From an uncultured virus (IMG/VR IMGVR_UViG_3300044837_000188) (Duplodnaviria > Heunggongvirae > Uroviricota > Caudoviricetes): 20,000 nt of DNA. The notes under the pieces are model-generated. The model ran no database searches. It had not been told where the DNA came from and saw only the letters and a program-made list of their open reading frames with translations. Shown piece by piece: positions 5,197 through 20,000 of the stretch. The stretch lies in IMG/VR virus record IMGVR_UViG_3300044837_000188. One strand, written 5' to 3'. The translations under genes were made by a program, and so were the position numbers. The first letter of the stretch is position 1, and each line of letters begins with the position of its first letter.

Positions 5197-5720
5197 GCTA
5201 CTACACCAAGCAGGGGGAGAGGGAGAACCGACTCCCTCACCTCCTGGTGGCGACGATCGACACCCACTGGAACTCCGGCATCAAGTGGGTGATCCAGTGC
5301 CCCTACGAGGCCGACGGCAAGGCCGAGGGGTGCGGGATCGTCGAGGAGTGCAACGGCACCCCGGACGACGTGGTCAAGTGGGACTGCCTGCTCTTCCCGG
5401 AGTCGCCGAGCGACCGGGCCGCCTTCGCCGGGCTGAGCGACGAGGACCGCGCGGCGGCCTGGTCGGAGTTCGAGGCCAAGCGCGAGGTCTGGGACGAGGT
5501 CCACGACTGGAACCGCTGGCACCGCACCACCAAGTGCTGGTACGCCCACGTCGCCATTCCGAACTCCGACTTCGATCCGGAGTACTTCCTCGCGGACATC
5601 CCGCGAGACACACCGATCAACGGACCGCTGAAGGTCCTGGTCGGCTACGAGGGGTCCGACGAGGACACCGAGCCCAAGTTCCGACTGTGGGAGGAGCCCG
5701 ATGGCGCCCAGACGAGTTGA
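5193..5720 (+). CDS. Acidic hypothetical protein with several Cys
   Basis: GGAG RBS and ATGA overlap. Confidence 0.8.
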   Translation: MSYYTKQGERENRLPHLLVATIDTHWNSGIKWVIQCPYEADGKAEGCGIVEECNGTPDDVVKWDCLLFPESPSDRAAFAGLSDEDRAAAWSEFEAKREVWDEVHDWNRWHRTTKCWYAHVAIPNSDFDPEYFLADIPRDTPINGPLKVLVGYEGSDEDTEPKFRLWEEPDGAQTS

Positions 5721-6018
5721 ACCGCACCTGTACTCCGACACCCCCGTCTTCCGGGCGATGCTCTACGAGCGGGATGGCCGCTACCCGGGCACCCCTGAGG
5801 GCGAGGAGGAGCTTCCGGAGGTCATCCTGACCCAGGAGGTCCCCGAGGACGTCCAGGACGTCCAGGCGCCCGCTGAGGGCCTTCTGAACCGCGTGGTCCC
5901 CGTGGCCCTGATGAACCTCCCGGCGGTCATGCCGGTCTTCCCCGAGCCCGAGCGGTCCGCCGAGAAGACCCAGGCCATGCCGCTTCCGCTCTTCGTCGAC
6001 CACGACGACGAGGCCTAG
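5701..6018 (+). CDS. Acidic Pro-rich hypothetical protein
   Basis: GGAGGAG upstream of ATG 5701. Confidence 0.7.
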   Translation: MAPRRVEPHLYSDTPVFRAMLYERDGRYPGTPEGEEELPEVILTQEVPEDVQDVQAPAEGLLNRVVPVALMNLPAVMPVFPEPERSAEKTQAMPLPLFVDHDDEA

Positions 6019-6035: not shown

Positions 6036-6440
6036 GTGCTACAGTCCAGAGAGATCCCGCCGACCTCGGAGTTTCCCGTGTTCGACCTGAACTCGTACGA
6101 GAAGAACATCGCTCAGTTCTCGTTCCCCTTCATCAACACGGAGCATGAATACCGGGACATCAAGGTGGTCCGGCGGGGACGGCTCAGCGACGACTCCTGG
6201 GCGATCGTGGACGAGCCCTGGTGTTACCAGCCCAGGGGCCGCAGGTGGGCCTACGAGCGGCTCCCGAGCAGCCGGACGGACAAGTTCCTGAAGGCTTCCC
6301 GGATGCCGCTCGCCGAGGCCCTCCCGCTGGCCGAGAAGCTCGCCAGGAGCAAGGCCCGCCAGTGGGAGAAGCGCCTTGTCCGGATGATCGCCCGCCAGGA
6401 GGCCGTAGCCGCTGCGAAGGCCAAGGAGGCCAGCGAGTGA
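6036..6440 (+). CDS. Hypothetical protein
   Basis: GTG start uncertain; motif WAYERLPSSRTDKF; GTGA overlap with the next gene. Confidence 0.75.
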   Translation: MLQSREIPPTSEFPVFDLNSYEKNIAQFSFPFINTEHEYRDIKVVRRGRLSDDSWAIVDEPWCYQPRGRRWAYERLPSSRTDKFLKASRMPLAEALPLAEKLARSKARQWEKRLVRMIARQEAVAAAKAKEASE

Positions 6441-7123
6441 ACGAAGTGCTGTTGAAGGGGATCGTGGGGAGCACCGCCTACGGTCTCGCCCATGAGGGGT
6501 CCGACGTGGATTACCTGGGCGTGTTCGCGGCTCCCACGCGAGAGGTTCTTGGTCTGCATCCCGGCAAGGAGTCGGTGGTCCACAAGGACCCGGACACGAC
6601 CCTCCACGAGGCGAAGAAGTTCGTCCAGCTCGTCCTGAACGGCAACCCCTCGGTCTCCGAGCTGCTGTGGCTGGACACCTACGAGCAGCGCACGTACCTG
6701 GGCGCCCATCTGGTCGAAATCCGCAAGGCGTTCCTGTCGGCCCCGCGTGTGCGGGATGCCTACATGGGCTACGCCACGTCCCAGTTCGGCCGCCTGATCG
6801 CGCGGGGAGACGGATCCTTCTCCGCCGACACCAGGAAGCGCACCGAGAAGCACGCGCGGCACCTGGTGCGACTGGTGGAGCAGGGCTTCCACCTGTACAT
6901 CTCGGGTGAACTACTGGTGAACGTGACCGGCTTCCTGGAGCCCGAGTGGGTCTTCCAGATGGGCCGCAACATCGCCGACGACCCCAAGAGGGGCGCCGAG
7001 TACATGGTGAATGCCCAGCAGAAGTTCGATGGCGCGCGGAGCTGTCTGCCGGGGTATCCCGACGAGGAGCCCGTCGAGAAGTGGCTCATGGAGGTCCGGG
7101 AGAAGTACTGGACCGCGAAGTAA
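6437..7123 (+). CDS. DNA polymerase beta superfamily nucleotidyltransferase (RlaP/YcgL-like)
   Basis: AAGGAGG RBS, GTG 6437. GSxAYG...SDxD motif (GSTAYGLAHEGSDVDYLGVF), GNPSVSELLW and KHARHLVRL are typical of this family. Confidence 0.85.
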   Translation: MNEVLLKGIVGSTAYGLAHEGSDVDYLGVFAAPTREVLGLHPGKESVVHKDPDTTLHEAKKFVQLVLNGNPSVSELLWLDTYEQRTYLGAHLVEIRKAFLSAPRVRDAYMGYATSQFGRLIARGDGSFSADTRKRTEKHARHLVRLVEQGFHLYISGELLVNVTGFLEPEWVFQMGRNIADDPKRGAEYMVNAQQKFDGARSCLPGYPDEEPVEKWLMEVREKYWTAK

Positions 7124-16798: not shown

Positions 16799-17671
16799 AT
16801 GGGCGAGTACCGCAGCTTCAGCACCGGCGAGATCCTCTCCGACAGTGAGCGCGCCAAGCTCAACGCGGACGACAAGAAGCGCTACGACCGCGAGCAGAAG
16901 GTGCGCTCGCTGATGGCTTTGATCGACAACCCGGCCACCGCCGAGGGTGAGCGCGACAACGCCATGCGGATGCTTTCGAACCTGATCGCCCGCCACCAGA
17001 TCGACGTCACCGCGCTCCGTCAGAAGGACAACACGGGCCCGGCGAAGATCGTGAGCTTCGAGGTCAAGCTCTCCAACCGCTTCAACCTCGGTGGCGTACG
17101 GGCCTCCGCCCTCACCTGGGCCGTGGCTCACCCTCTGGGCGGCACCACGATCAAGTGGTGGAGGTCCACGGACTCCACGAAGAAGGAGACGCGCTTCATG
17201 GTCTTCGTCTCCGAGGACGTCGTCGACTTCGCGAAGATGCTGGTCTCCTCGTTCACGATGCAGATGGAGACCGGTATGGCCGTGGCGGTCAAGGAGCACC
17301 GCCGTGAGCTGGAGAGGCAGTACCTGTACCCGGGCGAGATCAACAGGCTCGTCAAGGACTTCCGCAAGAGCTACGTCATCTCGTGGGGCACGGCGGTCGG
17401 TCGCCGTATGGAGGCCGGACGCAAGCAGGCCGCGACCGAGGCGAGCCGCGAGACCGGCAAGGAGATCGTGCTCGTGGATGACTCCAAGCGCACCAAGGCC
17501 GCTCAGCTCGCCTGGCACCAGGAGCAGTACGGCGCCAAGGCCAAGTTGCGGCCTGGTCGCAAGATCGTCATCACGTCCGACGACGGGGCCAGCGCGGGCC
17601 GCCGTGATGGTCTGAGGGCCCAGCTCGGTATCAACGAGGTCGGCGGACGCCGGAACGCTCTCAGCGCCTGA
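16799..17671 (+). CDS. DUF2786-domain protein
   Basis: KVRSLMALIDNPATAEGERDNAMRMLSNLIARHQID fits the DUF2786 helical pattern; C-terminal FRKSY...W and AGRRDG...AQL motifs. Confidence 0.75.
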   Translation: MGEYRSFSTGEILSDSERAKLNADDKKRYDREQKVRSLMALIDNPATAEGERDNAMRMLSNLIARHQIDVTALRQKDNTGPAKIVSFEVKLSNRFNLGGVRASALTWAVAHPLGGTTIKWWRSTDSTKKETRFMVFVSEDVVDFAKMLVSSFTMQMETGMAVAVKEHRRELERQYLYPGEINRLVKDFRKSYVISWGTAVGRRMEAGRKQAATEASRETGKEIVLVDDSKRTKAAQLAWHQEQYGAKAKLRPGRKIVITSDDGASAGRRDGLRAQLGINEVGGRRNALSA

Positions 17672-17681
17672 GAACCCCCGT

Positions 17682-17707
17682 GAGGGGCCGTCATGAGGCG
17701 GCCCCTC
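17682..17707 (+). terminator. Stem-loop
   Basis: GAGGGGCCGTC-ATGA-GGCGGCCCCTC, intergenic. Confidence 0.55.
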
Positions 17708-17731
17708 CCCTTCGACGCCCTGGGAGGGCTC

Positions 17732-18538
17732 ATGGACTTCGACAAGCTCAACCGCGCGACCTACTACGGGAGCATCGAGACGCACCACAGGCTCGGCCAG
17801 CGCGGGATGCTCACCGATGAACTCGGCCCGTTCGCGGGGGTCAATCCGCAGGAGATCGTCTACCTGCGGGAGAAGCTCGACGGCGCGAACAGCAAGATCG
17901 TGTTCTTCAACGGTACGGACTACGTGATCGGCTCGCGGGAGAAGCTGCTCTACGCGAAGGGCGACCGGCTGACCGAGCAGGTCATGCCGGAGCTGACCTC
18001 GATCGTGGAGACCCTCAAGCCGATCGCGGAGAACATGATCTCCACGTGGAAGGTGGAGAGCCGCGAGAGCGCGGAGTTCGGCTCCCACTCGATCATGGTT
18101 CTGTACTTCGAGACGTACGGGGGCAAGGTCGGCAAGGCGGCGTCCCAGTACAGCGGCGTCGGCAACCTGGGGGCGCGGCTCTTCGACTACGCGCTCGTGG
18201 AGCGCGAGGTCCTCGACATGTCCCGTGTGCAGATCGCGAACTGGCGGGACAACGGCCCGGGGCCGACCTTCGGGGACACGCAGGACCTGGCATCCGTGGC
18301 ACGGGACTACGGCTTGCCCGTGGTGCCCAACATCGGGGCTGTCCGCATGGAGGAGCTGCCGAAGGACCTGGGCGGCATGCTCGACTTCCTCCAGCGCAAC
18401 GTGGGTACGACCCACGCGCTCCTGGACGACGAGGGCAAGGGCGAGCCCGAGGGCATCGTGCTCCGCACGAACGACCGCTCGGTCATCTCCAAGGCACGCT
18501 TCCAGGACTACCGGCGCACGCTGCGGCAGCGCGGCTGA
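17732..18538 (+). CDS. ATP-dependent RNA ligase family protein (Rnl2-like adenylation domain)
   Basis: GGGAGG then ATG 17732. Motif I EKLDGAN, III YFETYG, IIIa LFDY, IV EGIVLR, V SKAR; no OB-fold-sized C-terminal extension. Confidence 0.8.
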   Translation: MDFDKLNRATYYGSIETHHRLGQRGMLTDELGPFAGVNPQEIVYLREKLDGANSKIVFFNGTDYVIGSREKLLYAKGDRLTEQVMPELTSIVETLKPIAENMISTWKVESRESAEFGSHSIMVLYFETYGGKVGKAASQYSGVGNLGARLFDYALVEREVLDMSRVQIANWRDNGPGPTFGDTQDLASVARDYGLPVVPNIGAVRMEELPKDLGGMLDFLQRNVGTTHALLDDEGKGEPEGIVLRTNDRSVISKARFQDYRRTLRQRG

Positions 18539-18729
18539 TGTTCTGGATCTTCCTGTGGATCTGGGTGGTCTACGCCTCCGGATGCTTCCTCACCTTCGTG
18601 TGGGGCTGTATCCGGAGGTGGGAGATCCAGATCCTGATACCGATCGCATTCGGCTTCTACGGCTCGCTCGTGTGGTGGGCCGTCTACCTGGTGGCCGACA
18701 AGATCGCTCAACACGTCAGCATTCACTGA
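18538..18729 (+). CDS. Small two-TM membrane protein
   Basis: TGATG coupling to the ligase; two hydrophobic segments separated by RRWE. Confidence 0.75.
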   Translation: MFWIFLWIWVVYASGCFLTFVWGCIRRWEIQILIPIAFGFYGSLVWWAVYLVADKIAQHVSIH

Positions 18730-18739
18730 GGGAGGGGCC

Positions 18740-19201
18740 ATGGGCGCCTGGGACACCGGGATCTTCGACAACGACAACGCGGCCGACTTTTCGGGCTCGA
18801 TGGAGGCCTGCACGGACGTGGAGGCCCGTCACGATCTCCTCATGGCCACCATGGGCGCGATCCTGGAGCGGGCCATCGAGCCGGACGAGATGACGCCGGA
18901 CTACGAGTTCGGCTACGAGGTGGAGCACGCGCTCGCCTCCGCCGCGTACGTGGCCGACGCCAAGAACGGCCGTCACGACTTCACGGACACCTCGTACGCC
19001 AAGATGCTGGTCCGCGAGGACGACTTCGAGGAGGAGGACGCCTGGGACTTCATCGACGTCGGCACCCCGTCTCCGAAGCTGGTGGAGCGGGCCGTCCTCC
19101 TGGTGGAGAAGGTCCTGATCAGCATGGTGGAGCGAGGTGTGGACGCCGAGTGGCGTGAGCCCTCGGAGAAGCTCCTCAAGGCGCTCCTGGAAAAGGCTTG
19201 A
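18740..19201 (+). CDS. DUF4259-like acidic protein
   Basis: GGAGG RBS; N-terminal MGAWDTGIFDNDNAADF signature; stop lies in the -35 of promoter copy 8. Confidence 0.8.
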   Translation: MGAWDTGIFDNDNAADFSGSMEACTDVEARHDLLMATMGAILERAIEPDEMTPDYEFGYEVEHALASAAYVADAKNGRHDFTDTSYAKMLVREDDFEEEDAWDFIDVGTPSPKLVERAVLLVEKVLISMVERGVDAEWREPSEKLLKALLEKA

Positions 19202-19241
19202 CGCTCCAACAATCCTGGGTGTAGCGTTGACAACGTCAAGG
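19198..19241 (+). promoter_or_regulatory. Repeated promoter cassette copy 8 (drives the ncRNA region)
   Basis: TTGACG 19198-19203; 18-bp spacer CTCCAACAATCCTGGGTG; TAGCGT 19222-19227; TTGAC-AAC-GTCAA 19227-19239. Confidence 0.85.
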
Positions 19242-19281
19242 CCGTACAAGGGCCGCCGGGGAGCCCCAATCCCCGGCACCA
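19241..19281 (+). other. Conserved hairpin/pseudoknot leader element, copy 1
   Basis: GCCGTACAAGGGCC-GCCGGGGA-GCCCCAA-TCCCCGGC-ACCA; homologous to 19861-19897. Confidence 0.6.
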
Positions 19282-19284
19282 CTC

Positions 19285-19418
19285 GGGGTGAGCGGAAGCG
19301 TAAGCACGGTTCAAATCCGTGGATCATCGGGCGATGTTGTGGGGTTCGATTCCCCTTCACTGATGGCAGCTAATAGGGCGGCGGCCCGCGCAGAGGGGTT
19401 CGAATCCCTTCCACCCCA
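19285..19418 (+). ncRNA. Putative structured tRNA-like ncRNA with three T-arm hairpins
   Basis: CACGG-TTCAAAT-CCGTG (19305-19321), GGGG-TTCGATT-CCCC (19341-19355), AGGGG-TTCGAAT-CCCTT (19394-19410); ends GGGGTG/CACCCC-A pair like an acceptor stem. Confidence 0.65.
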
Positions 19419-19452
19419 CTCAGTAAGACCGACGACTCCTCAGGAGGACACC

Positions 19453-19860
19453 ATGGCGAAGAAGATCATCGAGAGCGTGGCCACGCTGGTTCGCAAGGGC
19501 CAGGAGGCCAGCTTCGACGGCGGGGTCACGTGGGGCCGCGTGAAGTCTGTACAGGCCCTGGTGGTCATGGCGGACGGCACGAAGAAGACTGTCAGTCTGA
19601 GCAGCCTGGTACACATCCGCGAGGACGACCCCGAGCTGTGCCCCAACGGCCAGGACCTGGGGACCGAGTGCCGCGAGATCGACCCCTGCGAGTCCTGCCA
19701 GCAGGACATCGACGAGGAGGGCGACCGGATCGAGGCCTCCATGGGCCTGTGTGCGCCCGTTGTGGAGGATGACGACGAGGACGAGCCCGACCCGTACCGC
19801 AAGTGCCGGGGATGCTCGGGTGGCTGCTGCACCGGCGGCAGTGACCCCTGCACCTGCTAG
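19453..19860 (+). CDS. Cys-rich acidic protein lying between tRNA-like RNAs
   Basis: GACTCCTCAGGAGG 19434-19447 then ATG 19453; CPNG...CREIDPCESC and CRGCSGGCCTGGSDPCTC. Confidence 0.8.
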   Translation: MAKKIIESVATLVRKGQEASFDGGVTWGRVKSVQALVVMADGTKKTVSLSSLVHIREDDPELCPNGQDLGTECREIDPCESCQQDIDEEGDRIEASMGLCAPVVEDDDEDEPDPYRKCRGCSGGCCTGGSDPCTC

Positions 19861-19897
19861 ACCGTACGAGGGCCGGTGAGAGCCCTGATCTCACCAC
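19861..19897 (+). other. Conserved hairpin/pseudoknot leader element, copy 2
   Basis: ACCGTACGAGGGCC-GGTGAGA-GCCCTGA-TCTCACC-AC. Confidence 0.6.
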
Positions 19898-20000
19898 GGA
19901 GGGGTGCCCGAGTGGCCTATGGGTCCGGACGCAATCCGGATGACCTGGTCGGGTGCGCGGCCTAGGACAACGCGCACCGTCAGCCAGAGATCGTGGGTTC
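19898..20000 (+). ncRNA. Atypical tRNA-like RNA (Cys-like GCA in a 5-nt loop, oversized variable arm), 3'-truncated by the window edge
   Basis: GGAGGGG-TG; D arm CCC-GAGTGGCCTAT-GGG; anticodon arm CCGGA-CGCAA-TCCGG; ~50-nt arm with GGTGCGCG/CGCGCACC; T arm starts GTGGG-TTC at the edge. Confidence 0.65.

Follow-up and report, generated by a model that had tools for sequence, protein, structure and literature searches.

A putative tRNA-like stable RNA with T-loop-capped hairpins in an uncultured virus and in Streptomyces phages

Background

Stable RNAs with the shape of a transfer RNA (tRNA) have been known in bacteriophages since the era of T4 and T5. In the T4 genome record rnaC and rnaD are annotated as small, stable RNAs, and the T5 record (NC_005859) carries RNA1 (30501-30644, 144 nucleotides (nt)) and RNA2 (32959-33083, 125 nt), which are described as 'tRNA-like stable RNA with unknown functions'. 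To our knowledge, the function of rnaC and rnaD is still undefined after decades, and we know of no tRNA-shaped stable RNA of a phage with a demonstrated function. Here we describe an element of around 134 nt that resembles these RNAs. It is located on the + strand at positions 19285-19418 of a stretch of 20,000 nt (hereafter: the window) from an uncultured virus (Caudoviricetes; IMG/VR record IMGVR_UViG_3300044837_000188). In an initial annotation the element had been read as a triple T-arm, multivalent mimic of tRNA that lacks an anticodon arm.

The T5 RNAs have in common with the element their size (125-144 nt), their location in a tRNA region of the phage and an acceptor that closes onto a 3' T arm. 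RNA2 contains two matches to the T-loop motif GTTCRANTC. In the minimum free energy (MFE) fold the inner one sits at the end of the anticodon-side arm, and this is the same idea as is found in hairpin 1 of the element (see below). RNA2 differs in that it keeps a D-arm-like hairpin and has neither a third T-loop nor a set of small hairpins in its insert; furthermore, T5 has an enterobacterial host and shows no sequence similarity to the element. The two T4 RNAs, rnaC (species 1 RNA, 139 nt) and rnaD (species 2 RNA), are likewise small, stable RNAs encoded beside tRNA genes, and rnaC has a canonical 3' T arm that is followed by a short acceptor-like pairing with the 5' end. Unlike the element, rnaC has a single T-loop, a long rod-like central hairpin and only a short acceptor pairing, and again there is no sequence similarity. 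Among the blastn matches listed (40 of 65, E<=10) neither T4 nor T5 was present, and the organism tally was free of Escherichia and Enterobacteria phages. Judging by sequence, the T4 and T5 RNAs and the element share a kind and not a family.

Two further types of RNA from actinobacteria and their phages have to be considered. YrlA and YrlB (RF02553) are, like the element, non-coding RNAs (ncRNAs) with a tRNA-like module that includes a T arm, and they are linked to RNA-repair genes. According to the available text of PMC4201824, actinobacterial YrlA and YrlB carry T arms, and the YrlA of M. smegmatis, which has an acceptor stem of 7 base pairs (bp), serves in vivo as a substrate of RNase P and receives CCA, which shows that tRNA mimics are processed by actinobacterial enzymes. 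YrlA differs from the element in that its T and D arms are permuted and its ends form a Ro-binding stem; the element has no match to the YrlA model and no adjacent Ro gene. The second type is the abundant and stable Pleft ncRNA, which cluster A mycobacteriophages (L5, D29 and StarStuff; PMC5712189) encode at their right end and which, like the element, is a non-coding leader RNA of actinophages.

Results and Discussion

Layout of the element

We are confident that the element is a real, conserved and structured RNA gene. Considering its sequence and the analogy with the RNAs described above, it is probably a processed tRNA-like stable RNA, and taking both parts together we lean, with some caution, towards a non-decoding, tRNA-shaped small RNA of around 134 nt.

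The motif GTTCRANTC occurs four times in the whole window when both strands are considered, as compared to a mean of 1.07 in shuffled sequences. Three of the matches (19309, 19344 and 19398, all on the + strand) fall within 98 nt of the element and each of these constitutes the loop of a hairpin of 4-5 bp; the sole match outside the element is found at 5714 on the - strand. The three T-loop hairpins were located where the initial annotation had placed them, and the same holds for the acceptor pairing of six out of seven and for the GGGC-GGCG-GCCC hairpin.

All parts of the element are given here in 5' to 3' order on the + strand. The acceptor 5' strand GGGGUGA (19285-19291) pairs with 19411-19417 via six pairs and one A.C mismatch and adjoins the T arm directly, which results in a tRNA-like 7/5 geometry. 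The fourth acceptor pair, G:C in the window, is reversed to C:G in the homologs of the Satis type (see below). A 13-nt linker, GCGGAAGCGUAAG (19292-19304), replaces the D arm. In agreement with the initial annotation such an arm could not be drawn, as only 13 nt separate the acceptor stem from hairpin 1 and no conserved stem is found there. The CGGA and GCGUA within the linker are kept in the Satis type, as follows from the alignments and from a pattern that fits both lineages, and we infer that the GG acts as a substitute for the D loop. Hairpin 1 (19305-19321), with a 5-bp stem (CACGG/CCGUG) and the T-loop UUCAAAU, is kept in 4/4 aligned sequences. It occupies the position of the anticodon arm, and its loop can formally be read as carrying the anticodon CAA. 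The earlier statement that an anticodon arm is absent is therefore an interpretation, which holds in the sense that there is no proper decoding arm and has to be qualified with respect to the position of hairpin 1.

Downstream of hairpin 1, hairpin a (CAUC-GGGC-GAUG, 19325-19336) is present in the MFE fold and has CCCC-GAGGUA-GGGG as its equivalent in the Satis type. The stem of hairpin 2 (GGGG-UUCGAUU-CCCC, 19341-19355) is found family-wide, with 16/16 cells paired (alignment columns 68-82), and its T-loop sequence is confined to the lineage of the window, the Satis-type loop being YUGCGGC. Next comes a single-stranded stretch, UUCACUGAUGGCAGCUAAUA (19356-19375), that could not be aligned to the Satis type and that shows no change among the listed differences with relatives from soil (see below); the tandem stop codons UAA UAG are found at 19371-19376. 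Hairpin b (GGGC-GGCG-GCCC, 19376-19387) has a longer counterpart in the Satis type (CCUGCR...YGCAGG), in which one pair is changed on both sides. The following GCGCAG (19388-19393), which with the last letters of hairpin b makes up CCGCGCAG, is identical in 4/4 aligned sequences, as is the T arm (AGGGG-UUCGAAU-CCCUU, 19394-19410). The element ends with the acceptor 3' strand CCACCCC and a discriminator A (19411-19418); CCA is not encoded and CUC comes next.

Homologs in Streptomyces phages and in soil

A blastn search with 19150-20000 against phages yielded nothing at E<=1e-5. Using short-query settings (E<=10), a match of 34 nt (19386-19419) with 97% identity was obtained in the Streptomyces phages Satis, Quantum, Kradal and EhyElimayoE, all of the BM cluster. 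At the matched site no feature is annotated in Satis and Quantum, the records of which are nearly identical to the other two, and a 'hypothetical protein' is annotated in Kradal (gene 206) and EhyElimayoE (gene 207); the latter calls of a coding sequence (CDS) over the element are probably spurious. In Satis, the element (2384-2533 of locus L007) measures 150 nt and lies in a 305-nt gap downstream of an array of ten tRNAs, around 690 nt past the last of these and 145 nt upstream of the next annotated gene. The proteins that flank the element in the window and in Satis are unrelated (best E-values 0.36 and 0.14). A pattern for the 5' part that matches both the window and Satis recovered one further homolog from IMG/VR (~1493-1642 of locus L027), on a contig of 30 kb and around 75 nt after a tRNA-Arg gene. 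The other loci with the 5' pattern, L025 and L026, look like chance matches and by eye lie upstream of T arms of the tRNA type and the tmRNA (transfer-messenger RNA) type, respectively.

Other searches did not extend the family. Among the viral contigs, the pattern of the 3' block was found in no contig beyond that of L027 and an exact 25-mer had 0 matches, while the proteins of the ligase gene and ORF135 led to one distant locus (L001) that has neither a T-loop motif nor a tRNA. Among the metagenome contigs, a conserved 27-mer had 0 matches and the ligase protein 0 relatives. A pattern of three close T-loops retrieved four loci from the viral contigs (two of which, L003 and L004, have the same sequence), and none of these was a homolog, all being ordinary tRNA arrays that hold additional T-arm fragments. 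A covariance model that was run on five records gave only weak matches, among which those in SheaKeira and phiScoe44 scored 18 bits and those in G002 were tandem tRNAs. The element is not a borrowed tRNA end of a host or an attachment site, as a search of 185,579 species genomes for the 23-mer that covers the T arm and acceptor gave a single occurrence, which was in a metagenome-assembled genome of an unrelated archaeon; an origin as a copied host tRNA 3' end or attP was rejected on this ground. We found no description of the RNA family of Satis and the window in the literature. The genome announcement of Satis and JustBecause (PMC6687918) lists 13 and 14 tRNAs, and in its available text no tRNA-like RNA is described and 'tmRNA' is found only in the title of a reference.

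Contigs from three soil metagenome runs, with records of 2.6, 21.5 and 11.6 kb, span the whole region at around 90% identity. The differences with these relatives that are given here represent minimum counts, as there are 71 substitution and 16 insertion/deletion entries besides them. Within the element, one run lacks 19305 and two runs have 19313 A>G in the T-loop of hairpin 1, and the loop of hairpin a is affected by 19329 G>T (one run) and 19332 C>T (two runs). All three runs share an extra T after 19393, the change 19404 A>C, which falls on a variable position of the T-arm loop, and 19409 T>C, which turns a G.U into a G:C pair. None of the listed differences falls within 19333-19392, and many of the listed changes and insertions are found in 19420-19431, just past the discriminator A, which marks the 3' boundary of the element. 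In one soil relative 19196-19246 (51 nt, with the promoter-like repeat discussed below) is replaced by 560 other letters. The leader hairpin that precedes the element and the element itself are both kept despite this replacement, which suggests that the two move as one unit. A fourth soil contig (4.9 kb, of different depth) matches 19372-19421 and has another T-loop motif before the match, which suggests that further copies exist.

Covariation and selection

The window, Satis, Quantum and the homolog of L027 were aligned, and the pairs of the acceptor, hairpin 1, hairpin 2, hairpin b (Satis type) and the T arm were counted. For these 26 pairs, 97/98 cells were paired and the lone mismatch was a C.A in hairpin 1 of the L027 homolog. 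Four pairs change on both sides: two belong to hairpin 1 (C:G / G:C / A:U and A:U / C:G), one to hairpin b and one, the fourth pair, to the acceptor (G:C to C:G). The observed pairing measures were reached by 0-2 out of 500 shuffles, and slid partners were only 36-63% paired. A comparison of Satis and L027 makes clear that no other segment of the neighbourhood is as well conserved as the element: 141/150 positions are identical (94%), as compared to 64/74 and 58/75 in the neighbouring tRNA-Gln and tRNA-Asn, 74-85% in the CDSs and 69-73% in the spacers. Moreover, the T-loops vary only where the T-loops of tRNAs do, both in hairpin 1 (UUCAAAU, UUCAACU, UUCAAUU and UUCGAAU) and in the T arm (UUCGAAU and UUCGACU), and this includes the listed soil changes at 19313 and 19404.

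The element does not behave as a coding sequence. Its third-position G+C is 0.57, versus 0.91-0.93 in the flanking genes, and in the absence of a codon-position bias the overlapping open reading frames (ORFs) 19137-19373 and 19288-19860 were rejected. In addition, one soil relative has a 1-nt insertion within the element, which argues against coding. Together with the covariation and the unrelated flanking genes, the lack of a G+C bias bears out the view of the initial annotation that this is a genuine, selected tRNA-like ncRNA.

Features kept across the lineages are the acceptor stem, including the terminal A.C, the 13-nt linker, the T-loop of hairpin 1, a small hairpin a, the stem of hairpin 2 with a 7-nt loop, a hairpin b just ahead of the invariant CCGCGCAG, as well as the T arm and the discriminator A. 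The trait of the family is thus two T-loop hairpins and the third is specific for the lineage of the window, so that the label 'triple, multivalent' is weakened: the window has three T-loops, of which the family keeps just two. One proposed part had to be given up. The segments CATCGG (19325-19330) and CTGATG (19360-19365), which were thought to form a helix that encloses the second T arm, are complementary (6 pairs, one G.U), yet we found no support for their pairing: the change 19329 G>T in one soil relative turns the G.U into a U.U, the variable sites 19329 and 19332 both lie in the tetraloop of the competing hairpin a, and the homologs of the Satis type have a local hairpin at this place and no counterpart of the helix.

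Units with a T arm in other actinophages

The Pleft regions of cluster A phages (L5, L023; SheaKeira, L008; Pioneer, L024) contain a compact tRNA-like unit with an acceptor of 6-7 bp, a T arm and a discriminator A. In L5 the unit is found at ~51,134-51,226 on the minus strand, with a 6-bp acceptor and the T arm UCGGG-UUCGAUU-CCCGA, close to the zone of 51,140-51,190 that was reported for the 3' end of the Pleft RNA; the term 'tRNA-like' has 0 occurrences in that report (PMC5712189). Two acceptor pairs differ between SheaKeira and Pioneer, and in both cases the change is compensated. SheaKeira shares 28 nt at 96% identity with the T arm, the acceptor strand and the ACUCAG trailer of the window. 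The Pleft unit differs from the element in being compact (~75-93 nt), in ending a transcript of 500 nt and in having its 5' partner internally, and given the model score of 18 bits a homology that goes beyond the T arm and acceptor seems doubtful. A still smaller element, unannotated and of around 55 nt, was observed in phiScoe44 (~575-631 of locus L009), 35 nt upstream of a CDS. It has a 6-bp acceptor-like stem, a 17-nt loop and the T arm AGGGG-UUCGAGU-CCCCU, which is followed by ACUCAG. This trailer is common to the window, phiScoe44 and the mycobacteriophage units.

Genomic setting

The window has a G+C content of 66%, and every ORF of more than 100 amino acids with a coding-type G+C at the third codon position (GC3) is on the + strand. 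Pfam named four of the 29 window ORFs and PHROGs added phage families. Three of the four encode an RlaP-family nucleotidyltransferase (6221-7123, 65.8 bits), an RNA ligase (17693-18538, 35.8 bits) and a DUF4259 protein (18740-19201), and the other (16799-17671) has a weak match to DUF2786 that stays below threshold. The ligase gene ends 750 nt before the element. The nucleotidyltransferase, the ligase and the DUF4259 protein give the region upstream of the RNA genes a flavour of RNA repair. The closest relatives of the ligase were found in the Streptomyces phages JustBecause and Kela (38-39% identity), and for this reason the window looks like part of a large, high-GC and so far unsequenced actinophage, which we take to be a phage of soil.

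The element lies in the 251-nt gap between the DUF4259 gene and ORF 19453-19860, 34 nt upstream of the start of the latter. A promoter-like repeat, TTGACG (19198-19203)...GTAG, is found at 19195-19240 (+ strand) and overlaps the DUF4259 stop codon. It is the most divergent of six intergenic copies in the window, all on the + strand (starting at 1231, 2990, 3640, 12107, 15660 and 19195), which have cTTGACgCCCCA(gg/ac)AATcCTTGtAGTAc as their consensus. The other five copies have a ribosome binding site (RBS) and an ATG around 45-50 nt downstream, and the repeat is often followed by the palindrome TTGACGNCGTCAA and the leader repeat GACTCC(C/T)CAGGAGG. Read from this arrangement, the repeat is probably the phage's own type of promoter. 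Between the repeat and the element a leader hairpin, GCCGGGGA-GCCCCAA-UCCCCGGC, preceded by CCGTACAAGGGCC, could be read from the sequence (19255-19277, + strand), and the element is followed by a leader/RBS repeat, ACGACTCCTCAGGAGG..ATG (19432-19455, + strand), which is one of a family of three copies and leads into ORF 19453-19860 (GC3 0.91). The element and the hairpin at 19255-19277 together look like an insertion of around 185 nt into an ordinary leader.

A comparable leader, with CCGTACGAGGGCC and a hairpin at ~19876-19896, lies upstream of a second tRNA-like gene. Both leader modules consist of CCGTACRAGGGCC followed by a hairpin of 7-8 bp with a GCCC-rich loop of 7 nt, and both are placed immediately before a tRNA-like gene; their stems differ in sequence with complementarity being kept. 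They may be processing or stabilising hairpins. The second tRNA-like gene starts at 19898 and runs off the end of the window at 20000. It has GGAGGGG as its acceptor strand, a D arm of the class II type (CCCGAGUGGCCUAUGGG), a 5-bp arm with the loop ACGCAAU, in which a C is found at the expected U33 and the formal anticodon is GCA, an extra arm of around 50 nt with an 8-bp GC-rich stem, and a T stem from ~19993 onwards. The gene was not reported by ARAGORN or Rfam, possibly since it is cut by the window end, and a blastn search of 19880-20000 against phages gave no match; the soil relatives retain it with few changes.

A processed tRNA-like RNA and its possible role

In two respects the element is similar to the tRNA-like stable RNAs of other phages. 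It is found in or beside a tRNA cluster and on the same strand (in Satis and L027, and with the second tRNA-like gene in the window), and its 134 nt have their ends paired as an acceptor beside a 3' T arm and hold no usable anticodon. ARAGORN reported 0 tRNA or tmRNA genes in the window and Rfam gave no match there at its gathering thresholds. The remark of the initial annotation that no named family has this layout is valid as far as Rfam is concerned, and has to be adjusted in that the kind is already known from rnaC/rnaD and RNA1/RNA2: the element represents an uncatalogued RNA family of an already known phage RNA kind. The best Rfam match by E-value was tRNA-Sec (19288-19364), with 27.8 bits versus a cut-off of 47 bits, and mascRNA/menRNA (RF01684) reached 13.9 bits versus a cut-off of 42.5 bits.

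We propose that transcription would start from the promoter-like repeat, around 50-85 nt upstream, with the element as the leader of an operon that comprises the small ORF and the second tRNA-like gene. The host RNase P would free the 5' end at G19285, the 3' end would be trimmed after A19418, with CCA perhaps being added, and the processed RNA would accumulate as a stable species, like T4 rnaC and T5 RNA1/RNA2. These steps are suggested by the core geometry and by the precedents of T4, T5 and YrlA. Excision by tRNA-processing enzymes, which the initial annotation had put forward, is plausible in view of the canonical stack of acceptor and T arm, the discriminator A and the place of the element between a promoter-like repeat and an RBS or within tRNA arrays.

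The most speculative step is that the RNA would act in trans by occupying proteins that read the acceptor end, the T arm or the elbow of tRNAs, with host tRNA-directed nucleases or modifiers and the phage's own RNA-repair enzymes, encoded upstream, as candidate targets. Such a role is proposed because the acceptor/T-arm face is kept, T-loops are added and decoding is impossible. The RNA could be a trans-acting decoy or scaffold, as the initial annotation had suggested with tRNA-targeting defences in mind, a possibility that we put forward tentatively and do not expect to hold. The change of a decoding loop into a T-loop, which T5 RNA2 displays too, would suit an RNA that is bound like a tRNA and is neither decoded nor cut at the anticodon. 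More specifically, a T-loop-capped tRNA body with two to three elbow-like faces, a chargeable-looking acceptor and nothing to cut might serve as a competitive trap or a docking scaffold. We consider this specific form improbable; its candidate partners would be host tRNA-directed defence nucleases, toxins that modify 3' ends, and the ligase/nucleotidyltransferase set of the phage.

Various observations weigh against a conserved, processed tRNA-like RNA and have to be taken into account. The alignment contains four sequences from two deep lineages and, consequently, only a few events underlie the covariation. Of the T-loops, the third is restricted to one lineage, and no alignment of the central insert between the lineages could be made. 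Considering that the listed soil-relative differences are a lower bound, the conservation within that group may be lower than it appears. JustBecause, which belongs to the BM cluster like Satis, has no homolog according to the covariance model, its best match being the T arm of a tRNA-Trp, which implies that the element is dispensable for some relatives. A scan of 18700-20000 with the sigma-70 consensus, which covers the copy at 19195, found no promoter, and the promoter is thus deduced solely from the repeat. Finally, the MFE is not better than that of shuffled sequences (z -1.56), and in the MFE fold hairpin 2 is cross-paired with the T arm instead of both forming separate hairpins. This cross-pair was rejected, as it would be broken by 19404 A>C in three soil relatives with no compensating change of hairpin 2 listed; the same change is neutral in a T-loop, and separate hairpins are therefore preferred.

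Alternative explanations

The main rival to a stable RNA is a cutting signal that acts in cis as 'tRNA punctuation', in which the fold would recruit RNase P and 3' enzymes and thereby split the polycistronic transcript and set the 5' end of the messenger RNA of ORF 19453-19860, with the excised RNA having no job itself. The location 34 nt upstream of the ORF start, between promoter-like and RBS repeats, fits such a role, as do the small acceptor/T-arm elements that phiScoe44 and SheaKeira have 35-40 nt upstream of genes. We nevertheless think it unlikely, though worth serious attention, because an acceptor and a T arm would be enough for RNase P, which leaves the conserved hairpin 1 T-loop and linker unexplained, and also the fact that the element is the best-conserved part of its surroundings (94% vs 69-87%); in Satis, moreover, the next annotated gene is as far as 145 nt downstream. 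Another option is a non-canonical tRNA that still decodes and was derived from a class II tRNA-Leu, with hairpin 1 as an anticodon arm for CAA, the 13-nt linker as D loop and a variable region of 72 nt. The order of the arms is that of class II, the acceptor (6 pairs and the A.C) is placed on a 5-bp T stem with the loop UUCGAAU and a discriminator A as in a canonical tRNA, CAA is present in the window, the Satis type and L027, the tRNA-Sec model aligns to 19288-19364, and the neighbouring gene from 19898 combines a D arm of the class II type with a very long extra arm. Position 37 of tRNAs is almost always a purine. Across the loops of hairpin 1 this position is A, C, U or A, depending on the homolog, and the anticodon would read CAA or CGA, the switch taking place between relatives as close as the soil contigs of around 90% identity. 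Such variation fits the consensus of a T-loop (purine at 57, invariant A58, free 59), and with the lack of a D arm, the silence of ARAGORN and an Rfam score below the 47-bit cut-off, decoding is very unlikely.

The remaining explanations start from other known RNAs. One might suspect a Y RNA-like RNA that binds to a Ro (Rsr) protein of the phage and acts alongside the RNA-repair genes close by, given the RlaP-family nucleotidyltransferase and the RNA ligase in the window, the TROVE gene in Satis and the T arms that the available text of PMC4201824 assigns to actinobacterial YrlA/YrlB. The homolog of the ligase in JustBecause lies beside a Ro-like gene, and between a tRNA-Cys and this gene pair (5770-5840 of locus L006, ~87.3 kb in the record) we observed an unannotated YrlA-like match of 36.3 bits, below the 69-bit cut-off (E 5.7e-5), which is likely a phage Y RNA. 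The element itself did not match the YrlA model (RF02553) at E<=10 in the window or in Satis, a TROVE domain was absent from all 29 window ORFs scanned, and in Satis the TROVE gene (~85.9 kb) is separated from the element (~127 kb) by 41 kb. As the ends form an acceptor on a T arm, not a Ro-binding stem, and a D arm is missing, we regard the chance of a Y RNA as slim. A functionless remnant of two or three decayed tRNA genes is harder still to maintain. It is true that tRNA arrays hold T-arm fragments that ARAGORN skips and that the 5' strand can pair over 5-6 bp with the UUCAC after hairpin 2. In a 171-kb contig of IMG/VR, for instance, acceptor-closed units with a T arm that ARAGORN does not call occur within a tRNA array (L005, 1342-1694; L021, 1716-1782), one of which measures 66 nt and has a D arm, a T arm and a stub for an anticodon arm. 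The 5' and 3' halves of the element are, however, linked and covary across lineages with unrelated flanks, the element is better conserved than neighbouring bona fide tRNAs, and the T-loops are intact in every homolog, by which the decay of three ordinary tRNAs, named as a refutation in the initial annotation, is itself largely refuted. Finally, a miniature tmRNA-like rescue RNA with a short tag frame that ends at UAA UAG (19371-19376) would resemble the tRNA-like domain of tmRNA, which has an acceptor on a T arm, a single-stranded GG-containing substitute for the D loop, no D stem and no anticodon, and the UAAUAG stretch is free of change among the soil-relative differences listed. The charging of tmRNA with alanine needs a G.U as the third acceptor pair. 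This pair is G:C in 4/4 aligned sequences, the frame with its tandem stops is confined to the window's lineage, as the insert could not be aligned to the Satis type, ARAGORN called no tmRNA, the best Rfam tmRNA model (beta_tmRNA) scored 9.2 bits versus a cut-off of 84 bits and on the T arm only, and 134 nt is too short for the usual pseudoknots. A rescue RNA is therefore barely credible.

Implications

The design of the element is unusually explicit, in that the acceptor stem and the T arm are kept and the decoding loop is turned into a T-loop. The gene of the element is missing from the annotation of four deposited phage genomes, two of which have a hypothetical protein placed over it. T5 RNA2 independently has a T-loop motif at the corresponding place, and if the trap reading were true, 'T-loop-capped tRNA decoys' would be a recurrent invention of phages. 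Considering the fact that the element is present in cultured phages (Satis and its relatives, with the standard laboratory species Streptomyces lividans as host), the role of the tRNA-shaped stable RNAs of phages becomes directly testable.

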